A DNA stretch of 64,000 nucleotides from Candidatus Eiseniibacteriota bacterium (GTDB lineage: Bacteria; Eisenbacteria; RBG-16-71-46), in NCBI GenBank assembly GCA_963717505.1, contig OY970342.1:2848001-2912000 (forward strand). The letters are read 5' to 3'. The position numbers and the translations under genes were made by a program. Shown here in pieces: positions 10,720-64,000 of the stretch. Within the stretch, counting starts at the first letter, position 1. Each line of letters starts with the position of its first letter. A model generated the notes under the pieces. The model was not told where the DNA came from and made no database searches. It saw only the letters and a list, made by a program, of their open reading frames with translations.

Positions 10720-10768
10720 GGCGGGAGTATCGGCAAGGGCGGTGACCCAGGTTCACTCGGAATCCCAG

Positions 10769-45082: not shown

Positions 45083-45292
45083 TGGAACCTCCTGCATGTG
45101 TGATCGACGAACCACGATGTGCAGTAGCCAGGAACCCCGAATCCTCCTCTTTGTGGGGCCATGCTGGGCGGGGAGATGCTCGCGCCGTCAGGAATGATCC
45201 GTCGCGAGAATGCGTCCGTCAATCGGGATTTTGGGCCGCTCTCAAGTGGCCAGGCTGTCTTTGCATGGACCCGGAGGAGTAGCCTGCTGAGC

Positions 45293-46492: not shown

Positions 46493-46550
46493 ATCCACCT
46501 CCCAGTTGCCACAATTGCCCTGCGACGGGGGGCAGGAAGATACTCGCCGC

Positions 46551-48091: not shown

Positions 48092-48181
48092 CTGGCGTCC
48101 CCAACCATCGAGAATTCGAACCGCCTGATCGGCTGGTTGCGGGGGATGGATGGGCTCAAGCAGGATCTCAAGACCCCCTGA
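48092..48181 (+). repeat. att-like element copy A (antisense tRNA-Glu 3' end plus peptide tail)
   Basis: TGGCGTCCCCAAC...ATTCGAACC; reads LASPTIENSNRLIGWLRGMDGLKQDLKTP*; homologous to 62505 and 63243. Confidence 0.8.
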
Positions 48182-48295
48182 GGACCTGCTGCCTCGGCTC
48201 AGCTTCGACGACACGGTGTCGGTGACGGCGGGCGAAACGCAGGTGGCGCCGAAGGCGCCACCGACATACGCACTCTGCGGGGCGGAGGATGGGCC

Positions 48296-49279
48296 GTGCG
48301 AGCGGCGGTCAACACGCGCTACGGATCCCCGGACGTCATAGAGATCCGGGAAGTCGCCAAGCCTTTGCCGAAGGTGGGCGAGGTCTTGGTCAAGGTTCAT
48401 GCGTCGACGGTCAGTCGGACCGACTGCGGCTTTCTCCGCGCTCATCCCTTTGCGATGAGGCTCTTCACGGGGCTATTGCGACCGCAGCGGACGATCCTCG
48501 GCATGGACTTCGCAGGCGTGGTCGAAACGGTTGGCGCGAACGTCAAGTCGTTCCGCCCCGGCGAAAGCGTGTTTGGCCTGTTGCGATGGCGCGAACTCGG
48601 CGCCCACGCCGAATATGTCTGCGTGCCCGAAGCCTCGTACATCGCCAAGATGCCGACGGGCGTGACCTTTGAGCAAGCCGTTGTCGGCGAGGGCGCCTTC
48701 TATGCCTATACTTCGCTGATGCAGCTCGGCCTGAAGCGCGGACAACGCATTCTGATCTATGGCGCGTCGGGCGCCATAGGCACAGCAGCGGTGCAGCTCG
48801 CCAAGTCTCTTGGCGCGGACGTGACGGCGGTTGTCGCCACGCGCCATGTCGACCTTGCCAAGTCCCTCGGCGCGGCGAGAGTGATCGACTACACCGCTCA
48901 GGATTTCACGCGAATCGGGGAGACGTTCGACTGCGTGCTGGACGCTGTCGGGAAGGCTAGCTATTTCCGGTGCCGACGATTGCTGAAGGCAAGCGGGGTG
49001 TTCGCCGCAACGGACGCCGGGCCTGGGGGGCAGACATTGCTGCTCGCGATCTGGTCGTTCATCACCGGGAGCAAGAGGGTTCTTGCTGTGATCCCGAAGC
49101 GGGTCGAGCGTTTTGTCGACTACTTGAAGGAGCGCATTGAAGCGGGCGAGATTCGTGCGGTCATCGACAGGCGATATCCGCTCGAGGCGATCGCCGACGC
49201 CTACCGCTATGTCGAGCAAGGCCAAAAGACCGGGATCGTCGTCGTCAACGTGACGCCGGCGAGTGATCAGCACGCCTGA
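48296..49279 (+). CDS. NAD(P)-dependent MDR oxidoreductase (quinone reductase-like)
   Basis: YGSPDV, ILGMDFAG, GAHAEY, GASGAIG, VIDRRYPL; GGAGG SD. Confidence 0.92.
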   Translation: MRAAVNTRYGSPDVIEIREVAKPLPKVGEVLVKVHASTVSRTDCGFLRAHPFAMRLFTGLLRPQRTILGMDFAGVVETVGANVKSFRPGESVFGLLRWRELGAHAEYVCVPEASYIAKMPTGVTFEQAVVGEGAFYAYTSLMQLGLKRGQRILIYGASGAIGTAAVQLAKSLGADVTAVVATRHVDLAKSLGAARVIDYTAQDFTRIGETFDCVLDAVGKASYFRCRRLLKASGVFAATDAGPGGQTLLLAIWSFITGSKRVLAVIPKRVERFVDYLKERIEAGEIRAVIDRRYPLEAIADAYRYVEQGQKTGIVVVNVTPASDQHA

Positions 49280-49393
49280 TCGTGTCGCCGAGTGACGCTC
49301 CAGTCGCAGCACCTTGGACTGCCGCAGCATGGACACCCTGGCTCCCGGTGTGCCGCGCTCTCGCCGCGTAGAAGTGGCGGCCCCGGCTGAACG

Positions 49394-49916
49394 TCATTCC
49401 CGTCGCTGCCCGCTGCCGAGGAACGTGTTCCAGATTGTGTTTTCGAGGGTGGCCATCGCGGCCTCGAGCTCCGCGCGGTCTTTGATCGTTTCGGAAGTCG
49501 TGCCTTCCGCGGCAAGCGTTTCCGCACATCGCGCTTTGATGGGCAGGCCCTGGTCGCGACTTCCCAATCGGCCCAGCATGGCTCTCACTTGCCGGATCTG
49601 CTCCTGGACGTCCCTGATCTGTTCCAAGGCTCGCTCGACCGTGACGGCACCGCGCTGCGCGTTCTGGAGCAGGTGGCACTGGAACTCGCGACAGCACTTC
49701 GGACGATGGGCGTAGATGCCGCATCGTGTTCCACGCAGGGCCGCACAGGGCTTCGAGAGCAGGCCTGTGTGTCCTGCCCTGGTTCTCGACGTCCATCCCA
49801 ATGATCTCGAGTCGAGCGACCTCGGCCTGACCGACCAGCTCGACGTCGGCGAACAGCGTGCCGTCGCAGCACAGCCCGCAATTCGTGCACAGGGTATCCG
49901 TGAGGAGAGGTGTCAT
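49394..49916 (-). pseudogene. YkgJ-family gene with a frameshift
   Basis: N-terminus MTPLLTDTLCTNCGLCCDG and C-terminus PCAALRGTRCGIYAHRPKCC lie in different frames; shift in the ACACACA tract near 49766-49772; paralog of 30694. Confidence 0.8.
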
Positions 49917-50009
49917 GGGGGGACAATGGTCTATCGCGTCGCGATTCGAAAGGGGTGACTTGAAGTTCCTCCGTCTTTGCCGATGATTAGTCAGAACACG
50001 GGAGGAGCT

Positions 50010-51338
50010 GTGAAGACTAGTACGGAGCGTCGAAAACCGCAGGGTGGTCTCCGGGGGGCCGCCGTCACCTCCGTTGTCGGTTGTGGCGGCCGCCTCTTGC
50101 CGGTGCTCGCGATCGCCCTGTGGACGGCTCCCTCCGCCCAAGCCGTGCCCAACGCGACGCTGTGGGTCGTGCAACCGCCGGGGGAGATCGTCGCGTTCGA
50201 CGTCACCCGGTTCGAACGTGTCGGGGGCATACGGCTGCCGGTCCAGATCTACCACGATCCCAACAAACTCGCGATCAATGGCGTTGGCCAGATCATGGCA
50301 GCGCTGGATGAGCAAAGGCTTTGGCTTTGGGACGGCAGAACAGCGCGCGTGCTTCCCATCGAAACCAGTGTGAACGCAAACCGCGATTCCCGGCGGATCG
50401 CGAGCAAGCCGGCGCAGTGGCTGCTCGGTGACGACGGCAACTCGCTGGTCGTGCTCGAGTCGGTCGTGAAGGACTCCAGCAGACCAAGCGCTGGGGCCGA
50501 GTCGCTGATCGTTGTTCGCGAAACGTCGCTCGAACAGGAGCCACGCGACACGATCGCGTCGTGGAGATTGCGCTACTACGAGTGCCGGACTTCCCAAGTT
50601 GCAGACTTCACAGAACCTTGCCCGGATCCACGGCTCTATGCGCCGGGAGGGATCGTGCGGGGATCTCTCGCAGTCATGTGGTGGGAACGGGACTCGACAC
50701 TGTGGCACGAGGAGGGAACGCCGGCACTCGGTGGGTGCAACATTTCCCGACTCGTGCGGCAGGCTTCGGATTGGCGCGAACTCACCGACTGGAGCAATGG
50801 CGAACTTCCGCTCGATCTCGCAGCCAACGGAGCCTGCCTGTTCGTTGATCGTGATGGCGGTTGCTGCGGCTGGATCAATGAGAGTAGCGATCTCGTGATT
50901 TGTTCAACGCCAGAAACTAGCCTAGTGGTTTTCGACGAATGGCGACGCTTTGAAAACGCCGACTATGACGTGAGTTTCATGGCGACTTCTGCTCGCCTCT
51001 CGCCGGACAATCGTCGCGTCGCGATGACCATTGTGGGTACGTCATCTGCCATCGAAGGAATGCGCCTTTCGGCAGACGGGCAGGCAGATTCGGTCAAGCT
51101 TGCCGGTATTCAACGCGCATTGGCGACATTGCCCATAGCAATGGTGACCCGACTGTCGGAGCCGGGAGAAGTGCCGTTCGAGCTGCCGAACACCGAGGTG
51201 GTTGGTTGGACGAGCGAGCGCGAGCTCATCGTCGTTCAGGACCGCGAGCTGGTCGCTGTCGATGTCGTCACCCGCCGCACTCGATCCACAGGGATCCGCG
51301 TGAGGAGCGCAGCGGATGCGATCGTCGCGCGGAAGTAG
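50010..51338 (+). CDS. Hypothetical secreted protein
   Basis: GGAGGAG SD before GTG; signal-like segment; DGGCCGW.NES.D motif. Confidence 0.7.
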   Translation: MKTSTERRKPQGGLRGAAVTSVVGCGGRLLPVLAIALWTAPSAQAVPNATLWVVQPPGEIVAFDVTRFERVGGIRLPVQIYHDPNKLAINGVGQIMAALDEQRLWLWDGRTARVLPIETSVNANRDSRRIASKPAQWLLGDDGNSLVVLESVVKDSSRPSAGAESLIVVRETSLEQEPRDTIASWRLRYYECRTSQVADFTEPCPDPRLYAPGGIVRGSLAVMWWERDSTLWHEEGTPALGGCNISRLVRQASDWRELTDWSNGELPLDLAANGACLFVDRDGGCCGWINESSDLVICSTPETSLVVFDEWRRFENADYDVSFMATSARLSPDNRRVAMTIVGTSSAIEGMRLSADGQADSVKLAGIQRALATLPIAMVTRLSEPGEVPFELPNTEVVGWTSERELIVVQDRELVAVDVVTRRTRSTGIRVRSAADAIVARK

Positions 51339-51369
51339 ACGCGTGGTTTGCCGCGGGGAACGCTTTGTG

Positions 51370-52461
51370 ATGGGCCTGGCGGCAGCGATCGCAGCTGGGA
51401 GCCTGCTCGCACCCAACGTGTATGCCGACTCGCCCGACCGCGCAAAGCCTTCACTCTGGCTGGTCAGCTACTTCGCCGAAGCGCGCGACAAGTCGAATGG
51501 TATGGCGATCGAGTGGCGCCTGTTCGATCCAGCAACGCGGGTCGATTCGGTTCTGGTCGCCTTAGTCAGTTCGCCAGCAGCCGTGCGGATCAACTCCTCC
51601 TATACCGAGGCCACCTTCGCTTTGGGAGGCGCGATGCAACGCTTGCGCTGGGAATGGGGCGCCCAACCGTGGTCGGAGATCCCACTTCCCGATGCTCGGT
51701 GCATCGACGTCTGGTTCGACCAACGGGCTCGCTGCTGGTGGCTAGTCAGTGGTGATGTCATCCAACTGGGAAGAAACGCATTTCCTGGCCAGCTCTGCCG
51801 GTACGACTTCTGGCGCAGCACCGCGGATGGGAAGGACTGGAGTATCGCTCGTCGCGAAACCACGAGCTGCGTCACCTTCAGCTGGACTGGATGGACGTCG
51901 ACTCGGAACATCGAACCCGGTGCCGAGGCCGGGTTCGGGCTGTGGTTAGGGCAGGCCGCGATGACGCCCGATCGCTGGGGCCTGCCACCCCAGGCGATCT
52001 CGCCGCCGCAGGGCCAGAACGCGTCGGGGCCGCCCTGGTACTTCGTCGGATCGCGAGTCATCAAGGGCCTTGGGCTGGCCTACCGGATGGAGATGTTTCG
52101 CGGGGATCCGTCGAAGGGCCAGCGAGCCCAAGAGTGGTTCGTCACCGCGCCGTTTGTCCTCGTGGACAGGACCAATGGGAGCGAACGCGTTCTCGATGCG
52201 CCCAACTTCGGCCCCCTTGGCCAGCGCGTCCGACTAGGAATTGAAGAACGCGACGGCTTCGTCCTGCTCAGTGGTGACCGGAACTATCTCTACGACCTTC
52301 GCACCGGGGAGCAGTTGCTCCCGAGCTCGGCGAGGTCGCCAATCGTTTGGGTTCCCCGTCCAGTGCCGATGCGCGTTGACACAGCTGGATTCGAGCGGTT
52401 GCGCGCTCGTTTCGAGACGAGATCCGGTGGCGCTACGACGCCGCGGCATGAAAAACGTTGA
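51370..52461 (+). CDS. Hypothetical secreted Trp-rich protein
   Basis: Signal peptide ending VYA-D; long ORF following the previous gene; start uncertain. Confidence 0.65.
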   Translation: MGLAAAIAAGSLLAPNVYADSPDRAKPSLWLVSYFAEARDKSNGMAIEWRLFDPATRVDSVLVALVSSPAAVRINSSYTEATFALGGAMQRLRWEWGAQPWSEIPLPDARCIDVWFDQRARCWWLVSGDVIQLGRNAFPGQLCRYDFWRSTADGKDWSIARRETTSCVTFSWTGWTSTRNIEPGAEAGFGLWLGQAAMTPDRWGLPPQAISPPQGQNASGPPWYFVGSRVIKGLGLAYRMEMFRGDPSKGQRAQEWFVTAPFVLVDRTNGSERVLDAPNFGPLGQRVRLGIEERDGFVLLSGDRNYLYDLRTGEQLLPSSARSPIVWVPRPVPMRVDTAGFERLRARFETRSGGATTPRHEKR

Positions 52462-52485
52462 CTTGGGCACGCTGACGCCTAGACT
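52458..52485 (+). promoter_or_regulatory. Putative sigma70 promoter
   Basis: TTGACT-16 nt-TAGACT, about 150 nt upstream of GTG 52641. Confidence 0.55.
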
Positions 52486-52640
52486 TGTGTGCGACGACAC
52501 GTCGGGAGGTCGAGCAAAACCCTGCCGACTCGTAGGTGAGAACCAAGCGAGATAGTCGTGCCCACCAGTTGAGGAGGCGCACCGGGAACCAGGCTACTGC
52601 TGACGAGTTGAAGTGTTCGTTTCTCGTGCAGGAGGTGCCT

Positions 52641-54641
52641 GTGTCTCGCTTCCGCCTAGGCTCCGAGAGAAGTTCGCTGCTCGACATGCCACCGATCGCC
52701 GCGGCATTGACGTTGGCGTTCATTCCCCTCGTTGTGTCCACGTGTAGCGCGGCGTGGGTCCCGAACGGCGCGCCTGTCACCATGGCGCCGGGCGAACAAT
52801 CATTGGAATCCACGGTTCCCGACGGGAACGGCGGCGCATACGTGTTCTGGCGGGACAACCGCCTCGGCTACGACTACGCACCCCGATACGACGTCTTCGC
52901 CCAACACCTGGACGCCGAAGGCGAAGTGGTTGCCGGATGGGACCCGCAGGGCAACCCGATCGCAAACACCGATGACCACGAAGGCGGTGCTCGTGCCATC
53001 AGCGATGGCGCGGGCGGCGCGATCGTGATGTGGGCGGCAGGCAACTATCGCCTGCAGCGGGTTCGCCCTGATGGGTCCCATGCCTGGTCATCCGGCGGTG
53101 TGTCCGTCTCGGATGACGGCGCCGCCCGCGTGTCCGGCCAAGTCATGCCCGACGGTTCGGGAGGTGTCTACGTCGTTTGGGCCAACGCCGTGGTGAGGCC
53201 ATCGCTCGAGGCGCTCTGCCCGCGCTGTCATCCCAGCTACACCTATCATCTCTTCGCACAGCGCATCGATGCATCCGGCAACCGTCTGTGGGGCGCGATG
53301 GGGGTACCGGTGACTCCAGACTCCATCGCTGGCAACGTAACCCTGCTCCTCGGCAACGAGGGGCGTCCGCTCATCCTATGGATCGATGTGCTGGGAATGT
53401 ATCGAGCCCAGGAACTCGACTCCGATGGACATGCTCGCCTGCAACCAGATGGTCAGGTCATTCCGCATCTTCGCGGCGGGCTCACTGCAGCTACCGGACC
53501 GCGCCAAGCGGTGACCGTATTCAACTACGGGGAGGACACACACGAAGACATCGCGGCCCAACACCTCGGGCCCGATCTCACGGTGGACTGGGGAGAGTCG
53601 GGCCAGCCGATCGTCGTCGAGGCTCACAAACAGGAGCCAACAGGGATGACCGGCGATGGTGAGGGCGGCGTACTGCTCGCATGGCACGATATCCGGAACG
53701 CCGTTAGTTGGGATGTGTATCTCACTCGCGTGACATCGGGAGGAAGCTTGGCTGAAGGCTGGCCGGATCATGGACTTCCCGTTTGCACGATGTCGGAGAG
53801 GCAAGACAGTCCGACACTGATCTCCGATGGAGACGGCGGGGCGTACGTGGCATGGATAGACCTTCGAGAACCGACCAACGGCTACGACCTCTATCTGCAA
53901 CGTGTACTCGGAACCGGGACTATTGCGGCGGGCTGGCCAGACCAGGGCCTTCCGATCTGTATCATTCCGCAGCAACAGGTGAACCCCCAGCTCGTCGCCG
54001 ATGGCAACGGCGGAGTCATCGTCGTTTGGAACGACTATCGGCGTGGCTCGGAAATCTACGCGCAAAGGATCGATGCTCACGGTCGGATCGGCGACCAGCA
54101 CACTGCGGTTATCGTGTCGCAAGCAATTCTTACGGTCGACGCAAACGACGTGACTGCCGAATGGCAGGTCGACGTGGCAGGAATCAATAGCGTCGAAGTC
54201 CTGCGGTCGAGCGTTGCCCGCGGCGTCGAACGGCTCGGAACGGCATTGATCAATGGCTCGCATCGCGCACGGTTCACGGATCGCGACGTGCCTTCAGGCC
54301 GTTACGGGTATGCGATTGAACTCGTGCATCTCGGGACGACCATGACCACTGAATTCACCTGGATCGACGTCGTGCCCTCAGCTCGGCTTGCGCTCGAGGG
54401 TTTCCGTCCAAATCCATCGAACGGATGGGCTCCGATTGCGTTCGTTCTCCCCGAGGCCGGGCCCACGCAAGTTGAAATCTTCGACATACGAGGACGTCGG
54501 ATGCGTGATCTGAGAGAGGCTCACTTGAGCGCTGGGTCCCACTCCATCGCGGTCGGTGGGCGTCTACCGGCGGGTGTCTATTGGATCCGACTGACGGCCG
54601 GGACTCGAAGTATTGCGGCCCGAGGGGTGGTCCTCGACTAG
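52641..54641 (+). CDS. Secreted repeat protein with CTD, paralog of 43319..45082
   Basis: WVPNG start of the mature protein; DG.GG...W.D.R repeats; PNPS..GVYW C-terminus; AGGAGG SD. Confidence 0.85.
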   Translation: MSRFRLGSERSSLLDMPPIAAALTLAFIPLVVSTCSAAWVPNGAPVTMAPGEQSLESTVPDGNGGAYVFWRDNRLGYDYAPRYDVFAQHLDAEGEVVAGWDPQGNPIANTDDHEGGARAISDGAGGAIVMWAAGNYRLQRVRPDGSHAWSSGGVSVSDDGAARVSGQVMPDGSGGVYVVWANAVVRPSLEALCPRCHPSYTYHLFAQRIDASGNRLWGAMGVPVTPDSIAGNVTLLLGNEGRPLILWIDVLGMYRAQELDSDGHARLQPDGQVIPHLRGGLTAATGPRQAVTVFNYGEDTHEDIAAQHLGPDLTVDWGESGQPIVVEAHKQEPTGMTGDGEGGVLLAWHDIRNAVSWDVYLTRVTSGGSLAEGWPDHGLPVCTMSERQDSPTLISDGDGGAYVAWIDLREPTNGYDLYLQRVLGTGTIAAGWPDQGLPICIIPQQQVNPQLVADGNGGVIVVWNDYRRGSEIYAQRIDAHGRIGDQHTAVIVSQAILTVDANDVTAEWQVDVAGINSVEVLRSSVARGVERLGTALINGSHRARFTDRDVPSGRYGYAIELVHLGTTMTTEFTWIDVVPSARLALEGFRPNPSNGWAPIAFVLPEAGPTQVEIFDIRGRRMRDLREAHLSAGSHSIAVGGRLPAGVYWIRLTAGTRSIAARGVVLD

Positions 54642-54716
54642 ACGATCCAATGGACTCGCTCAGGCCGCAGGGTTCGCCGGCTCGAAACTACGGAGTGAGG
54701 CAATCGCCTCGATCAC

Positions 54717-56444: not shown

Positions 56445-56484
56445 GGGTCGAGACTACCACTTGGTTTGGTCCGGCTACCGTGCG

Positions 56485-57453
56485 TCAGGGCCGCGTGATT
56501 TGGCGTCGGTCGCTGCCGTCGACGTTCATGGTCCAGATCACTCCGCCCGCCCCGGTGGAGTCTAAGCCGCTGTAGGCCACCCGGTCGGCAGGTCCAACCG
56601 AGAATTGAAACCAGAAGTGCACGCGAGGATCGCCGAGATCAAACGAGAGCCGCTGCTGCGCCGACCCATCGGAGTTTACGACCCACGACTTCGTCACGGA
56701 CGGATCGCCGAATGTGGCCGGGCTGGGCGTAAAGTGGAAATAGATTCGCTGACCATCCGCAGACCATTGGAGGTTGGCGCACCAGCCATTGAGGTGAGTG
56801 AGCTGTCGATAATCTGTGCCGTCGGCCTCGACCGCACAAATGTTGCCGCCCGTGCCCGACTCGTTCGACATGAAGGCTATGGTTCGCCCGTTTGGGGACC
56901 AAACGGGGTAGCTTCCGAAAGTCACGTTCGAATCTGGCCGGATCAGCGCCCGTTGATCGCCCGTCATGGTGTCGATGATGTGGATACCGGACGTGGAATC
57001 GGGAGCGGATGGCGCACGCGCCGTGATTAGATAGATCAGAAATCGGCCGTCCGGAGACCATGAAGGGTAGGCAGCATACGGGCCGGTCCACGTCCGCGTC
57101 TCGCCCGTGGCGATCACGACGGTGGAAATGCCGCCCTCGTAGTACGCGATGCGGCTGCCATCCGGTGACCATGCAAGCTGGGGGGAGACCGCAGGCCAAA
57201 TGCCGAGCAGCGCTGTAGGAGAGCCACCAGAAACGCCGACGATGGCGATATGTTCGGTGTCGGCGGAATCGCGCGGTTCGTGCAGGTAGGCAATCGATTG
57301 TCCGTCTGGAGACCACGTGGGGATGGCGTCAAGACTCCGGTAGCGCGGAAAGGGCTGGGGCCGGGTGGGCGAACTCGAACAAGCGGCGAAAAGGGCCACC
57401 GCGCACGCGGCCAGAACAATCCGCGTCCCGCGCCGCATCCTTCTGGAATTCAT
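56485..57453 (-). CDS. TolB-like PD40-repeat lipoprotein
   Basis: FAAC lipobox; multiple WSP[DN]G repeats. Confidence 0.85.
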   Translation of the reverse strand: MNSRRMRRGTRIVLAACAVALFAACSSSPTRPQPFPRYRSLDAIPTWSPDGQSIAYLHEPRDSADTEHIAIVGVSGGSPTALLGIWPAVSPQLAWSPDGSRIAYYEGGISTVVIATGETRTWTGPYAAYPSWSPDGRFLIYLITARAPSAPDSTSGIHIIDTMTGDQRALIRPDSNVTFGSYPVWSPNGRTIAFMSNESGTGGNICAVEADGTDYRQLTHLNGWCANLQWSADGQRIYFHFTPSPATFGDPSVTKSWVVNSDGSAQQRLSFDLGDPRVHFWFQFSVGPADRVAYSGLDSTGAGGVIWTMNVDGSDRRQITRP

Positions 57454-57590
57454 CTCGAGGTGAAGCAGTCCGAAATCCCTCTCCGCGGGGCCGACATCGG
57501 CTTGTCACTCAAGGGCACAATACAGCCCGGCATACCACGGAGTTCCAGAAGGTTGGGGCAGGTCGGGACAACCTAGCGGGCTGAGTGTCC

Positions 57591-60008
57591 CTACCGCCCG
57601 GGGCTGGCTCTGCTCATGCCCTCGAACAAAGCCAGAATGCGCTTGTACTCGTCCAGCCAGCTGTCCGCGTGCGAGAAGTTGTGTCGATCGAGCGGGTACG
57701 GAGCCAGCGTCACCTCGTCCTTGTGCAGTTCGATCAGCCGCTGGTAGAGCCGCACCGAGTCCTCGAACAGGACGTTGTCGTCGAGCATCCCGTGGCAGAT
57801 GAGCAGCGGACCCGCGAGGCCTTCGGCGAACTCGATGGGGGATGACCTGCGATAGGCGAGGCTGTCCACTTGCGGCGTGTTGAGGATGGCCGCGGTGTAG
57901 CCGTGGTTGTACTGCGACCAGTCGGTGACTGGACGCAACGCGGCGCCGGCATGGAAAACGTCGGGCTCTTTGAACATCGCCATCAGCGCCATGAAGCCGC
58001 CGTACGAGCCGCCGTAGATGCCGACTCGGCGCTCGTCGCCGCCATGCTCGCGCACCAGCCACCGCACCCCGTCCACCAGGTCCTCCAGCTCGGGCGTGCC
58101 CATCCGGCGATAGATCGCGGTACGCCAGTCGCGGCCGTAGCCCTGCGAGGCGCGGTAGTCCATGTCGAGCACGACGTAGCCGCGCTCGGTCAGCAAGTGG
58201 TGGAACATCTGCTCGCGGAAGTAGTACGGAAACTGGAGCTGGGTGTTCTGCAGGTAGCCGGCGCCGTGCACGAACATCACGATCGGATGGAGCCCCGTGG
58301 TATCGGCGGGCAGGTAGAGACGCGACCAGATCGGCGCTGCGCCGTGACTCGACGGCACCGCCACGATGCGTGGCTCCGGCCACTGGATCGCCTGGTACTC
58401 GGCGGTGCGCGTGTCCGTGAGCTCGCGCAGTGCGCCGCCGGAGGAAGCGCACACCGCGAGCTGCGTGGGCGTGTGTGTCGCAGAGTGCTGAACCCACAGC
58501 TTAGTGCCGTCCGGCGAAAGACCGAACGCGCTGCAGCCCTGGAGCGGCGTGAGCCGAGCGAGGGGACCGCCCGTGCTCGGCACGCGATAGACGTCGTACG
58601 CGTACGGCGCCTCGGCGTTGGACAGCGCGTAGATCCAGCGTCCGTCGGGAGAGACCTCGGGCGAGGACACCTCGAAACTTCCGCTGGTGAGCGCGACCGC
58701 GGGACTTCCGGGCACTTTCGCGTAGAGGTGCGAATAGCCAGTTTCCTCGGATAGGAACCAGAACCGCTTGCCGTCCGGCATCCAACCGGTCTGGTTGTGG
58801 CCCCAGTTCACCCAGGCGCTGTCGGTGAGCCGATGCTCGGGCCTTAGTGCGTGCTTTTCGAGGTCCACGGTCGCGAGCCAGCGGTCCTTGTGGTCGTGAG
58901 CGGTGAACCGCACCAGGGCTTCAGTGCCCTGCGGATTCCACCAGATCGCGGATACATCGAGCGGGCGTTCCTTGGGTTCGGACGACCCGGCACCGGCGCT
59001 GTCGGGTTTCGCCTTGCTGGTGTCGGGCGCGTCGGACTTGCGCTCGCGCTGGTTCTCCGCGCGCACGCTCGCCAGCATGTCGGCCTTGATCCCCGGCAGT
59101 GGCGCGTACGCGAGCTTGTGCCGCGTACGCTGCTCCAGGTCTACGAGCCATAGCGTCTCGGGCGCCGGCCCGCTCCGTCCCACGCGCGTGCGCGTTTCCT
59201 CGACTTCCTCGTAGCCCGATTCGGTCACGTACATCGGCATCTTGCCGACGCGGCCCGCGTCGTAGCTCTTGGCCGTGGTCACGGCAAAGACCCAGCGGCC
59301 GGTGGGCGAGATTTCAGTCTGAGTCAGCACCACGTCGTCGCCCACATACACCGGCAGCGGCGAGCGACTGGGATCGGAGCGACGCAGGAACTCAGCGTGG
59401 CTCTTGAGCGAGTCGCGGTCGGCACGGTCGCGTGCGAGCGTTGCGATCTGCCGGAGCTGCATCCGCTCTAGATCGTTGGTCTTATTCTCGTCGGGGTCCT
59501 TGCCGGCTACCACCATCGCAGCCGGGCCGGTCACGCGACTGGCCAGGTCGTACGCGTACCAGTCGTTCCCGATGCGGAACAGCACCCGCGCCCCGTCGGA
59601 CGAGAATCGAGGCGCGGCCTCCGTCACGGTACTGCGAGTGACTTGGGTGAGTTTCCGGTTCCCCAGCTCACGCACGAACAGGTCTCCATTGCGGATGAAC
59701 GCCGCGCGCTTTCTCGCGGGGTCGAAGACCGGGTTCTGCGCGTCGAGGTCGGCGAGATCCGCGGGCGGGACCGGCCGGTATGCGCCCCCGGATGCCGCCA
59801 CTCGGTGGAGGTCGCGCACCGGCGAGCCGGGGCGCTTGAGGCTGAACAGGATCGAGCGTCCGTCCAGCGACCAGTAGGGTCGTTCCACCGGCGGCCCGAT
59901 CCAGTCCGGGTCGGCCATGATGCGTTCGAGCGTGAGGGGTGCCGCGTGCGCCGGAGATGCGAGCAGGGAGACGGCCAGTGTGGTGATGAGCCACGGGACA
60001 CAGCGCAT
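57591..60008 (-). CDS. S9-family (DPP IV-like) peptidase
   Basis: Signal peptide; propeller domain; HGAGY, GGSYGG, DDNV, H (catalytic Ser-Asp-His). Confidence 0.93.
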   Translation of the reverse strand: MRCVPWLITTLAVSLLASPAHAAPLTLERIMADPDWIGPPVERPYWSLDGRSILFSLKRPGSPVRDLHRVAASGGAYRPVPPADLADLDAQNPVFDPARKRAAFIRNGDLFVRELGNRKLTQVTRSTVTEAAPRFSSDGARVLFRIGNDWYAYDLASRVTGPAAMVVAGKDPDENKTNDLERMQLRQIATLARDRADRDSLKSHAEFLRRSDPSRSPLPVYVGDDVVLTQTEISPTGRWVFAVTTAKSYDAGRVGKMPMYVTESGYEEVEETRTRVGRSGPAPETLWLVDLEQRTRHKLAYAPLPGIKADMLASVRAENQRERKSDAPDTSKAKPDSAGAGSSEPKERPLDVSAIWWNPQGTEALVRFTAHDHKDRWLATVDLEKHALRPEHRLTDSAWVNWGHNQTGWMPDGKRFWFLSEETGYSHLYAKVPGSPAVALTSGSFEVSSPEVSPDGRWIYALSNAEAPYAYDVYRVPSTGGPLARLTPLQGCSAFGLSPDGTKLWVQHSATHTPTQLAVCASSGGALRELTDTRTAEYQAIQWPEPRIVAVPSSHGAAPIWSRLYLPADTTGLHPIVMFVHGAGYLQNTQLQFPYYFREQMFHHLLTERGYVVLDMDYRASQGYGRDWRTAIYRRMGTPELEDLVDGVRWLVREHGGDERRVGIYGGSYGGFMALMAMFKEPDVFHAGAALRPVTDWSQYNHGYTAAILNTPQVDSLAYRRSSPIEFAEGLAGPLLICHGMLDDNVLFEDSVRLYQRLIELHKDEVTLAPYPLDRHNFSHADSWLDEYKRILALFEGMSRASPGR

Positions 60009-60066
60009 GGGGCGCGAGGATACTTCAACCTGGACGGCGAAGTCTGCCCCTGACAGTCTCCGCTAC

Positions 60067-61158
60067 ATGAAGCTTCTCTGCTGCTTGCTGGTCTTGTCGG
60101 TCTCGCTCTCGAAGTCGTTCGGTGATGGCGGCGCCGGCGGTGCTGGTGCGAAGGCGGTGGCCGCGAGCGGGGTCGACACGCTGTTCCTGCCCGAGCCGGT
60201 CCAGGTCGAGAGCACTGCGGCCTCTGCTCCTCGTGGACATGTGAGTTGCGGGCTGAGCGATAGGTCCGGGCGCCTGTGGTTCGGCACTTCGGAAGGGCTC
60301 ATGCGGTTCGATGGGCGGAGCTTTACGCGGTTCATCGAGGTGGACAGCCTGCGCGATGCGCGTGGCTACGCGAATTGGGAGCACATCTACTCCATCTTCG
60401 AAGACCGAGCCGGGCACATCTGGTTCGGCGCCCCGAACGGCGTGTACCGGTACGATGGAAACACGTTCACCTGCTGGGCAATCCCGGCGCGCGACTTCAA
60501 GGACCGGAACGACTACCCGAGCCCCGAGAGCCGGTTGTCGAACCCGCTGCCTCCCACTGCGGTCATAAGTATTCTGCAGGATCGGCACGGAGCTCTCTGG
60601 TTCGGCACCTGGGGAGGTGGTGTCAATCGCTACGACGGCACCTCGCTGACCAACCTCTCGGAGAAGAATGGTCTCTGCAGCAATGTGGTCCAGAGCATTC
60701 TCGAGGACCGCAAGGGGAGCATGTGGTTTGCAACCCGGGGCGGTGGCGTGTGTCGCTACGATTGGCGTTCCTTCACGACATACGCGACGCCAGGGGACGC
60801 AATCAGCTATCACGCGTTCTTCATTGCGGCCGACACGGCGGGCGTGCTGTGGACCGGCACGGTCGGTGGAGGTCTGCGTCGGTTCGATGGAACGGGCTTC
60901 ATCCCGGTCGCGGAGCCCGATCTCGTGAACGTCACCTGCATGCTGCAACGCCGCACCGGCGAGCGCTGGTACGGCACCAGCTCTGGTGTCTACCGATACG
61001 ACGGTCGAGCCTTGACCCGCTTCGCAGCGAAGGACGGCACGGGCAGCAATTCCGTCTGGGCCATCGTGGAAGACAAGAGCGGCAGCCTCTGGTTCGGCAC
61101 GCGGAAGGGCCTGTGCCGCTACGACGGGCGGTCGTTCACCCGCTTTCCGGAAGAGTGA
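60067..61158 (+). CDS. Secreted Reg_prop beta-propeller protein
   Basis: Seven I.ED..G.[IL]WFGT..G..RYDG..FT repeats; no kinase domain. Confidence 0.85.
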   Translation: MKLLCCLLVLSVSLSKSFGDGGAGGAGAKAVAASGVDTLFLPEPVQVESTAASAPRGHVSCGLSDRSGRLWFGTSEGLMRFDGRSFTRFIEVDSLRDARGYANWEHIYSIFEDRAGHIWFGAPNGVYRYDGNTFTCWAIPARDFKDRNDYPSPESRLSNPLPPTAVISILQDRHGALWFGTWGGGVNRYDGTSLTNLSEKNGLCSNVVQSILEDRKGSMWFATRGGGVCRYDWRSFTTYATPGDAISYHAFFIAADTAGVLWTGTVGGGLRRFDGTGFIPVAEPDLVNVTCMLQRRTGERWYGTSSGVYRYDGRALTRFAAKDGTGSNSVWAIVEDKSGSLWFGTRKGLCRYDGRSFTRFPEE

Positions 61159-61222
61159 GGGTTCCGACACGCAATGGAATCGGGACAGGCGGCTGTGCGC
61201 GACGTGAAAGTGCCGGAACCGA

Positions 61223-62398
61223 TCAGCGGAGCCGCACAAACCGACGCGACTGCCGTTCCGGGCCGGATCCGGCCACAAGCAGGTAAAGCCCCGCGGGTGC
61301 AGGCCGGCCACTCGAATCGAGTCCGTCCCAGCTCAGCTCGTGCGGCCCGGGCGTGAACACGTCGTCTGCGATCAGGCGCAGCCTGCGACCCTCGACGTCG
61401 ACGACCTCGACGCGCATGCGCCGTGGGTCGGGCACGTCGAGCCGGAACCGGACCGTGCCGCGATTCGGGTTCGGCATGGGCGCCGAGAGCCGTGCGCCGC
61501 TGGGCTGCGGGTCCGGAAGGCCCGCAACCGTGTTCTCGACGACGAAGTACTGCTGTCCCGGAACGCCATCGAGATCCACGCTGGATGCAGGACCAAGGGC
61601 GCAGGTGCCGGGCGGAACCGGGCCGAGGAGCTGGTTGGAGATCTCGACATCCAGCCCCGACGGGCGCGCGAGCAGCACGCAGATCCGGAACGGACCGGTG
61701 GGATCCCCGAGCGCGGCTAGCGGCACGGCCCATTCGAGTCCGCTCGTGACCCCGCTTCCCGAAGACGCGTTGCAACCTGCGTCGACGCCTCCTGTGTTCG
61801 AGCGATCGAAGCTGGCGAGGATGCCGTGGGGATTGACCGCGCCGGGGCCGACGAGAGTGCCTGGGGGCCCCAGCACCCCCCGGCCGAGGAAGGAGCCTGT
61901 GGCGCCGCCGACAGACGGCAGTTCCGCGAAGTAGGCCGGAAACCCGGCGGCGTCGCGGGCCACGGCGAGCCAGTAGTCGGGGGCGAACTCGGCGTCGAAC
62001 GTGAGCTCCGCCACGCTTTGAAGCGTCACCCAATCCTGCGGGCTCGAGTTGTCGTCGCTCAGGCTGTTCTGGCCGCCGGATCGCGTGTCGACGAACACAT
62101 GCAGCTGCGCCACCGGGTAGAGGAACTCGCTGTAGAAGCGATTAAGGCTGCCCGCGATGAACAGGAACAGCTTGCCGTCCTCGACCAGCACGTACGCGGC
62201 GTCCAGCTCGGATCCGGGGGAGATTTCGTACTGGTAGTCGCCGAGACTCGTCTGTGTCGATTGGACGCTCAACGGCTCGCCATAGGTGGCGTCGAGGATC
62301 CCATCCACCACCGGCGCAGCACTGGAGTTGGCGACCGGAGCGAGCAGCGCCACGCCGTAGAGGAGGACGCGAAGTCGATGCCCTGATGCCGTCCCCAT
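61223..62398 (-). CDS. Secreted protein with FlgD-Ig/CTD domain
   Basis: Signal peptide; VDG.LD..YG, GSELDAAY, SNQ.LG motifs; PNP..WDG..GLY C-terminus. Confidence 0.82.
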   Translation of the reverse strand: MGTASGHRLRVLLYGVALLAPVANSSAAPVVDGILDATYGEPLSVQSTQTSLGDYQYEISPGSELDAAYVLVEDGKLFLFIAGSLNRFYSEFLYPVAQLHVFVDTRSGGQNSLSDDNSSPQDWVTLQSVAELTFDAEFAPDYWLAVARDAAGFPAYFAELPSVGGATGSFLGRGVLGPPGTLVGPGAVNPHGILASFDRSNTGGVDAGCNASSGSGVTSGLEWAVPLAALGDPTGPFRICVLLARPSGLDVEISNQLLGPVPPGTCALGPASSVDLDGVPGQQYFVVENTVAGLPDPQPSGARLSAPMPNPNRGTVRFRLDVPDPRRMRVEVVDVEGRRLRLIADDVFTPGPHELSWDGLDSSGRPAPAGLYLLVAGSGPERQSRRFVRLR

Positions 62399-62504
62399 GC
62401 GGGCGAGGTTATCAGATGAGCGAGCGGGCCGAACCGACGAACTACGATGTTGCTCGCCTCCGATCGGTGGCTTCTCGGCGGAGGCGGCGCGGCGCCGATC
62501 CCAT

Positions 62505-62591
62505 GTGGCGTCCTCAACGGGCGCGGATTCGAACCGCTTGGCGGCGTGGCTTCGCGGGATGGATGTGCTCCGTCGTGTTTTGGCTGTGTAG
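62505..62591 (+). repeat. att-like element copy B
   Basis: TGGCGTCCTCAACGGGcgcggATTCGAACC; reads VASSTGADSNRLAAWLRGMDVLRRVLAV*. Confidence 0.8.
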
Positions 62592-62601
62592 CTGTCCCCG
62601 C

Positions 62602-62630
62602 TTGCGCATAGTAACGGCCCGCGTTACTAT
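62602..62630 (+). promoter_or_regulatory. higBA promoter with operator palindrome
   Basis: TTGCGC-17 nt-TACTAT; perfect inverted repeat ATAGTAACG-gcccg-CGTTACTAT at 62608-62630. Confidence 0.8.
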
Positions 62631-62636
62631 CGAACG

Positions 62637-62918
62637 GTGATTCGGAGCTTCCGAGGCAAGGACGCCCACCGGCTCTTCAACCGCAGCCCTGTCCGGAGGC
62701 TCGGGGCGGACGTTCAGCGCATCGCGCTACGCAAGCTAAGGCAGCTCGATGCTGCGGTTGCGCTGGAAGACCTTCGCGTTCCACCGGGCAATCGCCTCGA
62801 GAGACTCCGCGGTGATCGGGCCGGGGAGTGGAGCATCCGGATCAACGACCAGTGGCGCATCTGCTTCCGCTGGGAGGGAGGCGATGCTCATGACGTGGAG
62901 ATCGTGGATTACCACTGA
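62637..62918 (+). CDS. higB: HigB/RelE-family toxin
   Basis: MIRSF, LRVPPGNRLE.L.G, SIRINDQWRICF, VEIVDYH. Confidence 0.95.
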   Translation: MIRSFRGKDAHRLFNRSPVRRLGADVQRIALRKLRQLDAAVALEDLRVPPGNRLERLRGDRAGEWSIRINDQWRICFRWEGGDAHDVEIVDYH

Positions 62919-62930
62919 ACTGGAGAGCTC

Positions 62931-63236
62931 ATGGCGACCAAGAAACTGACGCCGATTCATCCGGGAGAGATCCTGCTGGAGGACTTTCTCGAGCCACTGG
63001 GCTTGTCTCAGTACCGGCTAGCAAAGGGACTCAACGTTCCGGCCAGGAGAATCAACGAGATCGTCCTTAGGAAGCGCGCGATTACCGCCGACACGGCCTT
63101 GCGACTGGCGCGTTTCTTCGGAACCTCTGATCGGTTCTGGCTGAATCTCCAGGCAGCCTATGATCTCGATGTCGAGCGTGATCGCCTGGCTGGGCGGCTC
63201 CAGCGTGAGGTGGAAGTGCTGCGGCGCGCGAGCTAA
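62931..63236 (+). CDS. higA: HigA antitoxin (XRE HTH)
   Basis: IHPGEILLEDFL, ITADTALRLARFFGTS..FWLNLQ..YDL. Confidence 0.95.
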   Translation: MATKKLTPIHPGEILLEDFLEPLGLSQYRLAKGLNVPARRINEIVLRKRAITADTALRLARFFGTSDRFWLNLQAAYDLDVERDRLAGRLQREVEVLRRAS

Positions 63237-63242
63237 GAGTCG

Positions 63243-63335
63243 CTGGCGTCCCCAACGGGCGTGGATTCGAACCACCTCATCGGTTGGCTTCACGGAATGT
63301 ATTCCCTCCAGAGGTCTCTGGAGACTGCTGCGTGA
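63243..63335 (+). repeat. att-like element copy C
   Basis: TGGCGTCCCCAACGGGcgtggATTCGAACC; reads LASPTGVDSNHLIGWLHGMYSLQRSLETAA*; contains the CTCCAGAG-gt-CTCTGGAG hairpin. Confidence 0.8.
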
Positions 63336-63382: not shown

Positions 63383-64000
63383 CTAGTGGCGAGTTGGCTC
63401 GGATGGCGATGGTCGGGGCTTCGTGACCTGGATGATGAGCGGCTTGGTTGTCACGTAGCCTCGCCAAAGTCGCTCGAGTGGGAGATCTTTGCCCCGCAGT
63501 GGCAGGAATTCGCCGACTCCGAGTTCGAAGCGAATGCCGTATCGCCCCGCCTCTCCGAAGCACTGGCCGACGGCGCCATTACGATCGACGACGTCTTGAC
63601 GATCAGCGCCGCGCACGGGAGCTGCCGAAAACACATCCCAATCGCAGGCTGGACCAAGGTTCATGTCGAAGCGCCCTCGACCGAACCTGACGGGGTACAC
63701 AAGGCTATCGCCTGGACTCAGTGAGACGAAATCGGACTTGGAAAGTGTCCGCCCCAGGGAGTAGGCAATGCTTGGCTCCAAGACGCATCGGCGAGCCGAT
63801 GTAGCCCCCCAGACACGGACACGGAGATCCCATTCCCCTTCCTCTAGCATCTGCTCTGGCTTCGGGCGAAGGAGGACCAACGTATCCGACCCCGCGTTCA
63901 AGAACACGAGATTGAGATCGATCGCTTCACCCGCTGCGAAAACCGTGGTCGGTGTTCGGACGACCAACTGAAGCGACTGGGAGGTCGTCGCAGGCGTGAC
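63383..64000 (-). CDS. Hypothetical Ig-like-fold protein, 5'-partial
   Basis: Frame open to the window edge; F..GE.I.L, N.G.D.L, L.PGDS, GRY pattern. Confidence 0.6.
   Translation of the reverse strand, partial: VTPATTSQSLQLVVRTPTTVFAAGEAIDLNLVFLNAGSDTLVLLRPKPEQMLEEGEWDLRVRVWGATSARRCVLEPSIAYSLGRTLSKSDFVSLSPGDSLVYPVRFGRGRFDMNLGPACDWDVFSAAPVRGADRQDVVDRNGAVGQCFGEAGRYGIRFELGVGEFLPLRGKDLPLERLWRGYVTTKPLIIQVTKPRPSPSEPTRH

Follow-up and report, generated by a model that had tools for sequence, protein, structure and literature searches.

Cis-mobilisable elements (CIMEs), related to Streptococcus ICEs, have an att site on each side but no integrase, and are mobilised by accretion. Together with tandem tRNA islands and tycheposon-like arrays, they are the closest known kinds to the locus described here, which was found in a stretch of 64,000 nucleotides (the window, meaning the whole stretch analysed). 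Like CIMEs, its units are att-flanked, without recombination genes and in tandem with related elements. Unlike CIMEs, they have other hosts, integrases and target, several are far smaller (one or two genes), and their mobilisation is something we infer. In Islander tandem islands and Prochlorococcus tycheposons, according to the accessible parts of the sources, later insertions at one tRNA gene push older ones outward, partial tRNA repeats remain at the joints and remnants accumulate; our locus is alike in this. As far as the available portion of the Islander paper states, a tandem array is accepted there only with an integrase in each island, and units below 2 kb are rejected. Unlike such arrays, ours has an integrase in none of its six units, four of which are shorter than 2 kb. 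With tycheposons, as the available part of their description gives them, it shares tandem insertion at a tRNA 3′ end, the partial tRNA repeats that this leaves behind and the presence of degenerate remnants. Tycheposons are also marked by a clade of tyrosine recombinases and a replication module (primase or helicase); no replication gene was seen among the scanned ORFs here.

The accessible part of the Islander paper also names Mx8 and SSV as integrases extending across attP, and a myxophage review, available in part, states that integration gives the Mx8 int a new 3′ end. The integrases linked to our locus resemble that of myxophage Mx8 (IntP): a bacterial tyrosine integrase gene would span attP, and its C-terminal residues would be replaced with the catalytic domain left intact. 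Compared with IntP by description, the present case differs in that about 25 residues would be swapped for seven (FEPVSPP) and that tRNA-Glu is targeted; the tail, moreover, forms a conserved module with an -AA ending, and there are arrays of mostly integrase-less mini-units instead of one prophage. In the 'suicidal' integrases of the SSV type, the att site lies within int and int fragments flank the integrated element; this splitting leaves neither part active and occurs in archaea only, according to the accessible passages of the sources, one of them a review. Here, unlike the SSV type, the extreme C-terminus alone would be exchanged, in bacterial hosts, and the catalytic and N-terminal parts would not be separated. 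The repressor-split systems (BPs) have attP inside a gene, so that a C-terminal extension with an ssrA-like degradation tag sets the integrated and excised forms apart, and the BPs integrase carries a C-terminal proteolysis signal too, as the parts of the reports at hand describe. It is the repressor gene that is divided there, and the integrase gene that would be divided here.

The repeat copies and the tRNA-Glu gene

Three copies of a ~90-nt element, A (48092-48181), B (62505-62591) and C (63243-63335), lie on the + strand of the window. Their mean column identity is 75% in a 121-column alignment. The first bases are TGGCGTCCCCAAC in A and C and TGGCGTCCTCAAC in B. Copy A, the outermost junction, has a 13-nt tRNA-Glu 3′ core followed by the putative integrase-tail remnant LASPTIENSNRLIGWLRGMDGLKQDLKTP and a stop (profile E = 3.7e-22). 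Copy B, the left end of the higBA cassette, has a core with one change (TCCTCAAC), the tail VASSTGADSNRLAAWLRGMDVLRRVLAV and a stop (E = 1.2e-18), and copy C a 16-nt core equal to the tRNA-Glu 3′ end, the tail LASPTGVDSNHLIGWLHGMYSLQRSLETAA and a stop (E = 1.5e-24). A 30-nt pattern taken from C and allowed up to three mismatches matches B and C, against 0.00 matches expected from 100 shuffles; A is more divergent and is not matched by it.

A DNA profile of the copies was run over the whole 4.16-Mb genome. At E ≤ 1e-6 it gives five matches, all on the + strand at genome positions 2896092-2914055: A, B, C and two copies just outside the window, D and E (window-equivalent 64160 and 65969). By this profile there is no further full copy in the 4.16 Mb; the search also returns a plain tRNA fragment, F, and one variant copy adjoins the genome's other tRNA-Glu gene, the CUC isoacceptor. 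A-E, F and tRNA-Glu lie in a single orientation within 33 kb, the five full copies within 18 kb. The preliminary description had reported three intergenic copies of the same orientation, which the sequence confirms, and had counted copies scattered over the genome against its reading; the full copies are not scattered, all five lying on one strand on the 3′ side of tRNA-Glu.

The only called tRNA-Glu(UUC) is found at genome positions 2928849-2928924 on the minus strand (window-equivalent 80849-80924), 16.9 kb past the window end. A minus-strand tRNA-Glu beyond position 64000 had been predicted and is thus there, but the recombinase gene predicted beside it is absent from this genome. Within the window, ARAGORN finds no tRNA and Rfam no RNA family. 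Over its first 16 nt, C equals the complement of the tRNA-Glu(UUC) 3′ end without a mismatch; in each copy the core amounts to 13-16 nt identical to the tRNA 3′ end, and a tail of ~75 nt comes after. The T-loop-like motif ATTCGAACC is displaced 5 nt further in B and C than in the tRNA, and the tRNA 5′ half is absent from the copies, both as first described; in A the bases between the core and the motif, which reads AATTCGAACC, differ. The arrangement is of the Islander type: an intact tDNA with six displaced 3′ fragments (A-E and F) on the + strand upstream.

Cargo of the units and their occurrence in relatives

To the left of A, a type I phosphodiesterase/nucleotide pyrophosphatase gene (46506-48074, +; Pfam PF01663, E = 9e-35) has its stop 17 nt ahead of the copy and no match at E ≤ 1e-20 in five relatives. 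Orthologues of the gene further left (45161-46492), 69-73% identical, lie on other contigs of relatives, and the distal flank of the array shows no synteny in relatives. The cargo of unit 1 (48182-62504, 14.3 kb) has genes on both strands. On the + strand, Pfam assigns a zinc alcohol dehydrogenase (48296-49279), a secreted protein bearing a T9SS-type tail (52536-54641) and a Reg_prop protein (59917-61158); on the - strand, it assigns an amidase (54717-56444), a PD40 protein (56485-57453), an S9 peptidase (57591-60008) and an FlgD_ig protein (61223-62398). The best relatives of the S9 peptidase and the amidase in five related genomes are only 31-42% identical. Unit 2, from B to C, holds only a type II toxin-antitoxin pair between two cores, att-flanked and without recombination or transfer genes: a higB-like RelE-type toxin gene (62637-62918, +; PF05015, E = 8e-19) and a higA-like HTH_3 antitoxin gene (62931-63236, +; PF01381, E = 4e-9). 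The higA stop is 6 nt ahead of C, and higA shares its reading frame with the tail of C. In unit 3, which extends to D, an ORF (63383-63967, -) has no Pfam, PADLOC or NCBIfam match. The unit from A to B measures 14,413 bp and that from B to C 738 bp, in agreement with the 14.4 kb and 0.74 kb given before; units 2-5 span 0.74-1.8 kb.

The claim that neither complete unit has an intact integrase holds as well: Pfam and an integrase profile detect no integrase domain in them, nor in any of the 30 scanned ORFs. Between A and the tRNA there is no integrase-body remnant, the integrase profile matching core-encoded residues only. The genome has six PF00589 matches, at 2.36, 3.43, 3.59 (two), 3.60 and 3.92 Mb, none of them within the array or its flanks, and no match to integrases of the tail-linked clade at E ≤ 1e-40. 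With neither a clade integrase nor a body remnant, no enzyme is therefore identified for present-day mobility in this genome.

The tail profile matches 57 of the 206 genomes of the class. Wherever a fetched stretch holds both a tail copy and tRNA-Glu(UUC), eight cases in all (G012, G032 with ~10 junctions, G011, G017, G057, G048, G028 and G119), the tail copies are on the 3′ side of the tRNA and on the opposite strand. Single elements arranged as predicted, in the order tail, cargo, int remnant, tRNA-Glu, are present in G028 and G119. Another 14 fetched stretches with tail copies have no tRNA-Glu; many are short contigs, but the one from G019 is a 20-kb piece of a closed genome. The 5′ flank of the tRNA is syntenic in three relatives and the array content is not, so that gene content varies at the junctions, a point that the preliminary description had proposed to test.

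Over 754 bp, positions 62506-63259 of the window are 89% identical to G147, which belongs to another genus. This similarity begins at the first core base of B and breaks off at the last one of C; the sequences flanking it are unrelated. Neighbouring core genes are 66-78% identical to those of G147. Because identity between genera is as high as 81-84% for the best-conserved flank gene, the 89% of higBA is only moderately above background, and the argument for cassette sharing rests on the exact boundaries, not on the level of identity. Other units, too, are common to different genera, at 83-97%; the ends of two were inspected, and both units stop at or ~40 nt from a core. A higBA unit present in another genus, in a match bounded exactly by the cores, argues that integrase-less units moved as cassettes: at least one unit, this toxin-antitoxin pair, appears from its boundaries to have moved between genera as a discrete cassette. 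Reads joining one copy to another, which had been proposed as a check, were not found in public read sets.

The tail and the 3′ end of the integrase gene

What the preliminary description called a peptide tail appears, from sequence comparison, to be the 3′ end of an integrase gene, a point that it had missed. Substitutions in the tail follow the pattern of protein-coding sequence. When 36 copies picked solely by the DNA profile are read in the tail frame, 45.5% of the codon differences that involve one base are synonymous, and the five remaining frames give 20-30%; with 51 copies the same test gives 47% against 19-31%. A tail profile search of 1.84 billion proteins yields 409 matches at E ≤ 1e-3. 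Four of the 15 fetched matches have a tyrosine-recombinase C-terminus, a linker of ~45 aa and then the tail; in two of these (P0050, P0063) the PF00589 match is below the Pfam cut-off, and the other two (P0114, P0126) are assigned by catalytic motif and alignment only. Full-length relatives of tail-bearing integrase fragments end in ...ASPTGFEPV[S/L]PP in 9 of 14 fetched cases. Recombinases ending in ...ASPTGFEP, as predicted earlier, do therefore exist among public proteins, but not beside the tRNA of this genome. In P0153 the tail comes after the same ASPTG.

One clade of tyrosine integrases thus has two C-terminal forms, ...ASPTGFEPVSPP, which runs into tRNA-Glu, and ...ASPTG followed by the tail; in two public contigs, L075 and L088, int and tRNA-Glu are convergent and overlap. 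The crossover core (ASPTG) is inside the int reading frame, which continues into either the tRNA complement or the tail. It is situated ~70 residues past the catalytic tyrosine, and only the last ~25 codons are detached. Since the C-termini end in one or the other way, attP would lie inside the int 3′ end.

The tail is predicted to be an amphipathic stretch, xSNxLxxWLRxMDxLRxxL, usually terminated by -AA; the predicted fold of the region is of low confidence (pLDDT 33-48). At the C-terminus of public proteins, 79 of 113 tails end in -AA, which suggests that the tail-bearing integrase form may be degraded. The tmRNA tag of this genome ends in LAA. Tails are also found behind recombinases of other kinds: P0039 has one after a Zn_ribbon_recom fragment, and P0081 after an Arm-DNA-bind_2 integrase. 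An excised (attP) form was not found: 47 viral loci contain no tail match and 80 metagenome loci one weak match, all loci being at most 49% identical to the query. Every int-plus-tail ORF could hence be a chimera that arose at a junction inside a tandem array, an origin that P0039 and P0081 fit.

Proposed mechanism and rival explanations

Very probably, A-C, along with D and E, are the tRNA-distal junctions of units inserted successively at the 3′ end of tRNA-Glu(UUC), and the higBA cassette moved without an integrase. The tRNA anchor, the arrays of relatives and the core-to-core sharing of a cassette all support the earlier reading of the copies as junctions of successively integrated units, and the checks proposed with that reading turned out for it, or almost so. 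Site-specific recombination at the tRNA 3′ end would add units one after another. The first part of each junction would be the crossover core, complementary to the acceptor-stem 3′ strand and CCA (13-16 nt), and the second the P′ arm of the incoming element, that is, the last ~25 codons of its integrase gene. The P′ arm would coincide with the int tail because attP would be inside the int 3′ end in this element family, and integration would thereby split int: the body would remain beside the tRNA with the new ending ...ASPTGFEPVSPP, read from the tRNA complement, and the tail would be stranded at the far end of the element. If the higBA unit travelled integrase-less between two cores, the integrase must have come from elsewhere; the tail-linked clade may have catalysed the recombination in trans. 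Recombination may still be going on in this genome. The exchange of C-termini may also regulate the integrase, for instance if only the excised or tandem form carried an ssrA-like degron (-AA).

More tentatively, and with rather less than even confidence, the locus could represent a cassette platform anchored at tRNA-Glu in this uncultured class, where integrases acting in trans would stack and exchange cassettes of one to three genes, bearing ~90-nt sites of core plus int codons, and spread them between genera, the same site also switching the int C-terminus. The cassettes would then be toxin-antitoxin pairs, secreted proteins and others, and would donate the missing C-terminus to an integrase landing upstream. 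An int beside the tRNA would have the short form FEPVSPP, and an excised or tandem copy the helix-plus-AA tail, likely a degron. Such a platform would mean integron-like gene capture from a tRNA-targeting integrase, with the state of recombination encoded in the C-terminus of the enzyme.

The units might instead be deletion remnants of formerly complete, integrase-bearing islands, which never recombined without their integrase, higBA having spread in a larger fragment or by homologous recombination between junctions; these, at ~90 nt and 75-89% identity, are long enough for it. At some junctions, among them 8717 in G012 and our copy E, the core is still preceded by 20-35 codons of the integrase linker, G032 retains a 63-aa integrase fragment, and the int genes of G028 and G119 are decayed. 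The accessible part of the tycheposon preprint reports the same kind of decay, in which integrases are fragmented and tRNAs are partial. Nevertheless we find this history unlikely: the six units of our array are free of any integrase-body remnant, the higBA unit is equally integrase-less in two genera, in both of which higA stops only a few bases short of the core, the identity to G147 ends exactly at the outer edges of the cores and not within the tails, and the tails are in an open frame in four of the five copies of this genome.

Successive insertion at the tRNA also accounts better for the locus than a true integron, in which an IntI-like integrase at a fixed platform would capture attC-like hairpin cassettes in single-stranded form. 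Toxin-antitoxin cassettes are a feature of chromosomal integrons. One is present here, arrays without integrase occur, and the likeness extends to the stacking of many small cassettes, with one recombination site apiece, at a single chromosomal location. Unlike an integron, the locus has a tRNA gene for its anchor, no common promoter and cargo on both strands. Across 14 copies RNAalifold finds no conserved fold on either strand (-0.01 and -1.8 kcal/mol, 0 compensatory pairs); conservation tracks codons rather than pairing, and the site is accounted for as tRNA core plus int 3′ end. The conserved 5′ side of the tRNA encodes an S8 peptidase and neighbours, with no integrase conserved there. Integron identity is contradicted by the fold and codon tests, attC hairpins and a resident IntI, attI and promoter being absent, and is thus highly improbable. 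The resemblance to integrons drawn in the preliminary description is an analogy only; its statement that attC-type sites are absent stands, and a resident integrase is lacking too. No more credible is a chance resemblance to tRNA-Glu on the part of a repeat dispersed in the genome, a small-protein gene standing alone or a structured RNA of tRNA-like form, even though the element is a short intergenic repeat whose open frame of ~28 codons stops at the same aligned position and which contains the T-loop-like motif. The copies are not dispersed in the genome, and neither an Rfam match nor covariation speaks for a structured RNA. As for a small gene, no codon is favoured at the first position (CTG, GTG, ATG and TTG all occur), an upstream start codon is absent from A, and the public tails are C-termini of longer ORFs, integrases among them. 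Finally, variant copies keep the tail while their core is altered to fit tRNA-Glu(CUC).

Junction copies and the tRNA-Glu gene

Three ~90-bp copies of one element, A (48092-48181), B (62505-62591) and C (63243-63335), lie on the + strand of the window exactly where the preliminary description placed them. Their alignment spans 121 columns with a mean column identity of 75%, and TGGCGTCC, CAAC, ATTCGAACC, TGG and ATG are invariant. A 30-nt pattern from copy C matches B and C at up to three mismatches; 100 shuffles gave no match. The 64-kb window contains neither a tRNA gene nor an Rfam family at gathering score.

We built a DNA profile from the three copies and ran it over the whole 4,162,540-bp contig (67.7% G+C), of which the window is bases 2848001-2912000. 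Five matches reach E <= 1e-6, all on the + strand: A, B, C and two further full copies, D at 2912160 (64160 in window numbering continued past its end, hereafter window-equivalent) and E at 2913969 (window-equivalent 65969). At this E-value the copies run in one orientation between 2896092 and 2914055, with none elsewhere. The subsequent matches are far weaker: a variant copy on the minus strand at 2670206 (E = 0.014), the tRNA-Glu itself (E = 0.18) and F, which is only a short fragment (2915247, E = 0.28). ARAGORN calls one tRNA-Glu(UUC), at 2928849-2928924 (window-equivalent 80849-80924) on the minus strand, as had been predicted for the region beyond 64000.

The + strand of this tRNA gene reads TGGCGTCCCCAACGGG-ATTCGAACCC... 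Copies B, C and E carry the tRNA's 16 nt (one change in B), then CG[T/C]GG-ATTCGAAC; the 5-nt displacement from the tRNA that had been noticed earlier is this CG[T/C]GG, inserted before ATTCGAAC. Identity with the tRNA, which defines the core of a copy, is limited to the first 13 nt in A and the first 15 nt in D, and F matches over 23 nt and diverges beyond. The positions of A-F and the tRNA give these spacings from left to right: A-B 14.4 kb, B-C 0.74 kb, C-D 0.92 kb, D-E 1.81 kb, E-F 1.28 kb and F to tRNA-Glu 13.6 kb.

Past the core, each copy continues into a tail. Every copy is open in one frame, L/V/M-ASPT..SN.L..WLR.MD.LR..L.., with a stop at the same aligned place (TGA, TAG, TGA, TGA and TAG in our five copies; D has a 1-nt deletion). 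We compared 36 distinct copies free of indels, which the DNA profile alone had picked from this genome and its relatives: synonymous changes make up 45.5% of their single-base codon differences in the tail frame, against 20-30% in the five other frames. The values are 47% and 19-31% with 51 copies, a weaker test, as this set was picked by peptide profile and is biased to the frame. Leu positions alternate between TTG and CTN, and Arg positions between AGG and CGN.

No conserved secondary structure was found on either strand of 14 copies (consensus -0.01 and -1.8 kcal/mol, 0 compensatory pairs). Pairing of core GCGTCC with the conserved tail GGACGC was rejected, since copies with a variant core retain ATGGA[C/T] without a matching core and covariation is absent. 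We also rejected the idea that each copy is a gene of its own: the copies open with CTG, GTG, ATG or TTG, with no preference. Copy A has no upstream in-frame start, and where a copy is preceded by a long open frame (of 916 aa at most), that frame reads as arginine-rich antisense sequence and not as a gene.

Integrases ending in the tail or in the tRNA complement

A 29-position profile of the tail, run against 1.84 billion proteins, has 409 matches at E <= 1e-3; most of these are short ORF calls that terminate in the tail. Fifteen of the longer ones were fetched. P0050, P0063, P0114 and P0126 consist of a tyrosine recombinase catalytic C-terminus (HD.RRS...GHKTRSVFDRY), a linker of ~45 residues, and ASPT with the tail; P0050 and P0063 match PF00589, both under the Pfam cut-off, and P0114 and P0126 are assigned by motif and alignment alone. 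P0044 and P0081, the latter with an Arm-DNA-bind_2 domain, represent a second integrase type, and P0039 has a Zn_ribbon_recom domain, as in large serine recombinases.

P0063 has 1713 longer relatives at E <= 1e-5. Nine of the 14 that we fetched (395-425 residues) end in ...[L/V/M]ASPTGFEPV[S/L]PP, the translated complement of tRNA-Glu. P0151 ends in ASPTGFEH...; in P0153 the ASPTG that it shares with the FEP-ending relatives is followed by the tail; the ends of P0172 and P0183 are the tRNA complement translated in a different frame, and P0264 runs into a different tRNA-like end. Aligned, the FEP-ending and tail-bearing forms diverge exactly after ASPTG. On two public contigs (L075, L088), int overlaps a convergent tRNA-Glu(UUC). 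Given the two C-terminal forms and this overlap, we place attP within the last ~30 codons of int. On integration, the body of int would stay next to the tRNA, and the tail would end up at the distal junction. The junctions of the array are a tRNA core plus an integrase 3' end. An attP inside int is known for phage Mx8 and SSV-type archaeal integrases (PMC4383910, PMC6070905 and PMC8371274).

At E <= 1e-40, 50 of the 206 class genomes have tyrosine integrases of this clade, which read into tRNA-Glu or into the tail. The recombinase ending in ...ASPTGFEP that the preliminary description predicted exists in those nine public relatives; in the window's own genome no clade integrase is present at the same threshold. 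Of 80 loci in a scan of genome contigs for the integrase, two belong to the tRNA-Glu clade, both on short contigs, and at the remaining loci integrases of the wider family adjoin or overlap other tRNA genes. Some read into the neighbouring tRNA: tRNA-Phe (L105), tRNA-Pro (L120), tRNA-Lys (L143) and tRNA-Leu (L135). The overlap of int with attP may be widespread in the integrase family, across several phyla.

We class the system most readily with tandem integrations at tRNA sites, as a variant in which int spans attP in the manner of Mx8. In function, its mini-cassettes without an integrase recall integrons, tycheposon islands and cis-mobilisable elements, although the array has the full defining features of none of these. 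We found no printed description of it in a limited collection of literature on Eisenbacteria integrases and on attP-in-int at tRNAs. It would show that cassette arrays, so far mainly bound to integrons, are also built by ordinary tRNA-targeting integrases, in an uncultured and poorly known host lineage, and would be a concrete case for how integrase-less mini-elements get mobilised. It would also be the second bacterial example, after Mx8, of an integrase C-terminus rewritten on integration, here with a conserved tail resembling a degradation tag.

Among 113 public tails lying within 8 residues of the protein end, 79 finish in -AA, 14 of those in LAA, and the tmRNA tag of our genome ends in LAA. 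A C-terminal LAA directs proteins to degradation by ClpXP. In mycobacteriophage BPs, attP lies in the repressor gene and integration removes an ssrA-like tag, and the BPs integrase also bears a proteolysis signal (PMC4557955). By analogy with BPs, we infer a possible tail-dependent switch of integrase state: when excised or in tandem, the integrase would end in a degron or a regulatory helix, and the tRNA-adjacent form would be without it. An AlphaFold model of P0153 with its tail has a mean pLDDT of 60.7; a helix is modelled over the tail (residues 348-374, pLDDT <50), on which we put little weight since both linker and tail are <50.

Excised forms were sought in several collections. Alignment of the integrase to viral contigs gave 47 loci, all at most 42% identical over full-length matches; the tail matches none of them, a result neutral on a phage form. 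Among the metagenome matches listed (at least 80 loci), all are at most 49% identical, no ORF ends in SPTGFEP and L238 alone has a weak tail-like match, so the excised form was not found there. Neither joints between copies nor the circle-junction reads envisaged earlier appear in public runs, which cover at most 0.16 of the stretch, in contigs of 150-400 nt. The loose ends that do occur, at 48092, 48123 and 62537, resemble further copies of the element in related organisms. Every int-plus-tail ORF could be a chimera from an internal array junction.

Units and their sharing between genera

The DNA between copies, divided into units, contains no recombinase domain in 30 scanned ORFs from the left flank to beyond the tRNA, and a six-frame search of 2890001-2934000 with an integrase profile recovers core-encoded residues only, in agreement with the earlier claim that the complete units lack an intact integrase. 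The PF00589 genes of the genome all lie far from the array.

Unit 1 encodes secreted proteins and enzymes that look accessory. The relatives of its S9 peptidase and of its amidase in five related genomes are just 31-42% identical, versus 69-73% for orthologues of the gene that borders the array on the left. Large secreted proteins account for much of the cargo, with FlgD_ig or Por_Secre_tail ends and beta-propeller, FG-GAP or Calx-beta repeats (window 52536-54641 and 61223-62398; 4489-6108, 6386-11125 and 11140-11964 of L001, our genome past the window). Unit 6, adjoining the tRNA, encodes two proteins matched by defence-system models (together window-equivalent 77015-80800). One is a 965-aa Dsr1-like protein (L001 13015-15912, + strand; PADLOC E = 1e-33) that matches Dsr1, a defence sirtuin, over its C-terminal two thirds, the N-terminal part being missing; the other is a DUF2971 protein of candidate defence family PDC-S31 (L001 15922-16800, minus strand; E = 1e-42).

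Unit 2 is a higB/higA pair. The higA ORF shares its frame with the tail of copy C (window 62931-63335), with a TAA stop and two codons between them; this may be chance, at one in three.

The 5 kb from B to F were searched against the class genomes. The single outstanding match is in G147, a different genus, and covers window 62506-63259 at 89% over 754 bp. It is limited by the first base of the B core and the last base of C's 16-nt core, with unrelated flanks; in G147 the right-hand core runs on as an F-type fragment, not a tail, and the higA stop is TGA. Core genes flanking the array are 66-78% identical to those of G147, and the best-conserved flank gene between genera reaches 81-84%. Other units also recur across genera: two other genomes (G141, G002) share a unit of 754 bp at 97% that ends exactly at a core, and the 639 bp common to G026 and G145 (83%) stop ~40 nt short of an F-type core in each. 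In three further shared pairs (82-88%) no end stops at a recognisable core, and one reaches a contig end.

Independent decay of complete elements would hardly leave two genera with an integrase-less unit bounded in the same way. Recombination at the cores by a putative trans-acting integrase is the simplest reading of these sequences, and the core-to-core higBA unit in G147 lends support to the cargo-cassette interpretation first offered in the preliminary description.

Across related genomes, the DNA profile of the copies matches 21 of 61 at E <= 0.01; the tail profile matches 57 of 206 in the class, including 43 of 88 in the window's family (each tally counts the unpublished genome G038, which entered no other part of the analysis). 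Island tools that demand an integrase per island would miss such arrays. The tail copies lie on the 3' side of tRNA-Glu(UUC), on the opposite strand, in all eight fetched stretches with both features (G012, G032, G011, G017, G057, G048, G028 and G119). Fourteen other fetched tail-copy stretches have no tRNA-Glu, seven of them whole contigs of at most 16 kb and one of them 20 kb of the closed genome G019. G032 has ~10 junctions spaced at 0.4-3.9 kb; G028 and G119 have a single-element layout of tail, 4-6 kb of cargo, decayed int and tRNA-Glu.

Gene content had been proposed to differ at the junctions, and it does: the tRNA 5' side (an S8 peptidase and its neighbours) is syntenic in G032, G017 and G011, and array content is not, except for an NHL-repeat gene and a large secreted protein with 36-42% aa identity to G017. 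At the DNA level, G012 and G032, of one genus, have nothing in common beyond the tRNA flank and their junctions. A separate contig of G012 (L071, G012:C8 145001-165000) carries a second set of three tail copies, next to an S8 peptidase like that of the tRNA-Glu flank and a tRNA-Arg(TCG), with no tRNA-Glu in the 20 kb fetched; it may be the rearranged half of an array.

The G032 array contains a 276-aa tyrosine recombinase as a separate unit (L025 17813-18643, minus strand), flanked by a full copy and by a degenerate one reduced to the tail, and directly upstream of a junction. It is in frame with the downstream tail, and two stop codons intervene. The PF00589 gene of our genome at 3433284-3434066 is 49% identical to it and has no junction nearby.

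A second junction type and a tRNA-Glu(CUC) variant

In F-type junctions, 23 nt of the tRNA-Glu 3' end (through ATTCGAA) are followed by another arm without the tail. They occur at L001 3247-3269 (window-equivalent 67247), at G147:C350 2089, and in L030 and L069; the arms of G147 and G145 are alike. This suggests a second element family that uses the same tRNA with a longer identity segment.

Outside the window, a tRNA-Glu(CUC) gene (2669162-2669270) has a 33-nt internal tandem duplication from anticodon loop to T-stem, which is why ARAGORN does not call it. The variant junction (2670142-2670225) lies ~0.9 kb downstream; its core fits that tRNA (TGGTAGC...) and it keeps the same tail, with the end ...AWLREMDALRHALAA. 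A small collagen-like secreted ORF lies between the two. In G033, tRNA-Glu(CUC) is intact and is accompanied by a similar variant copy.
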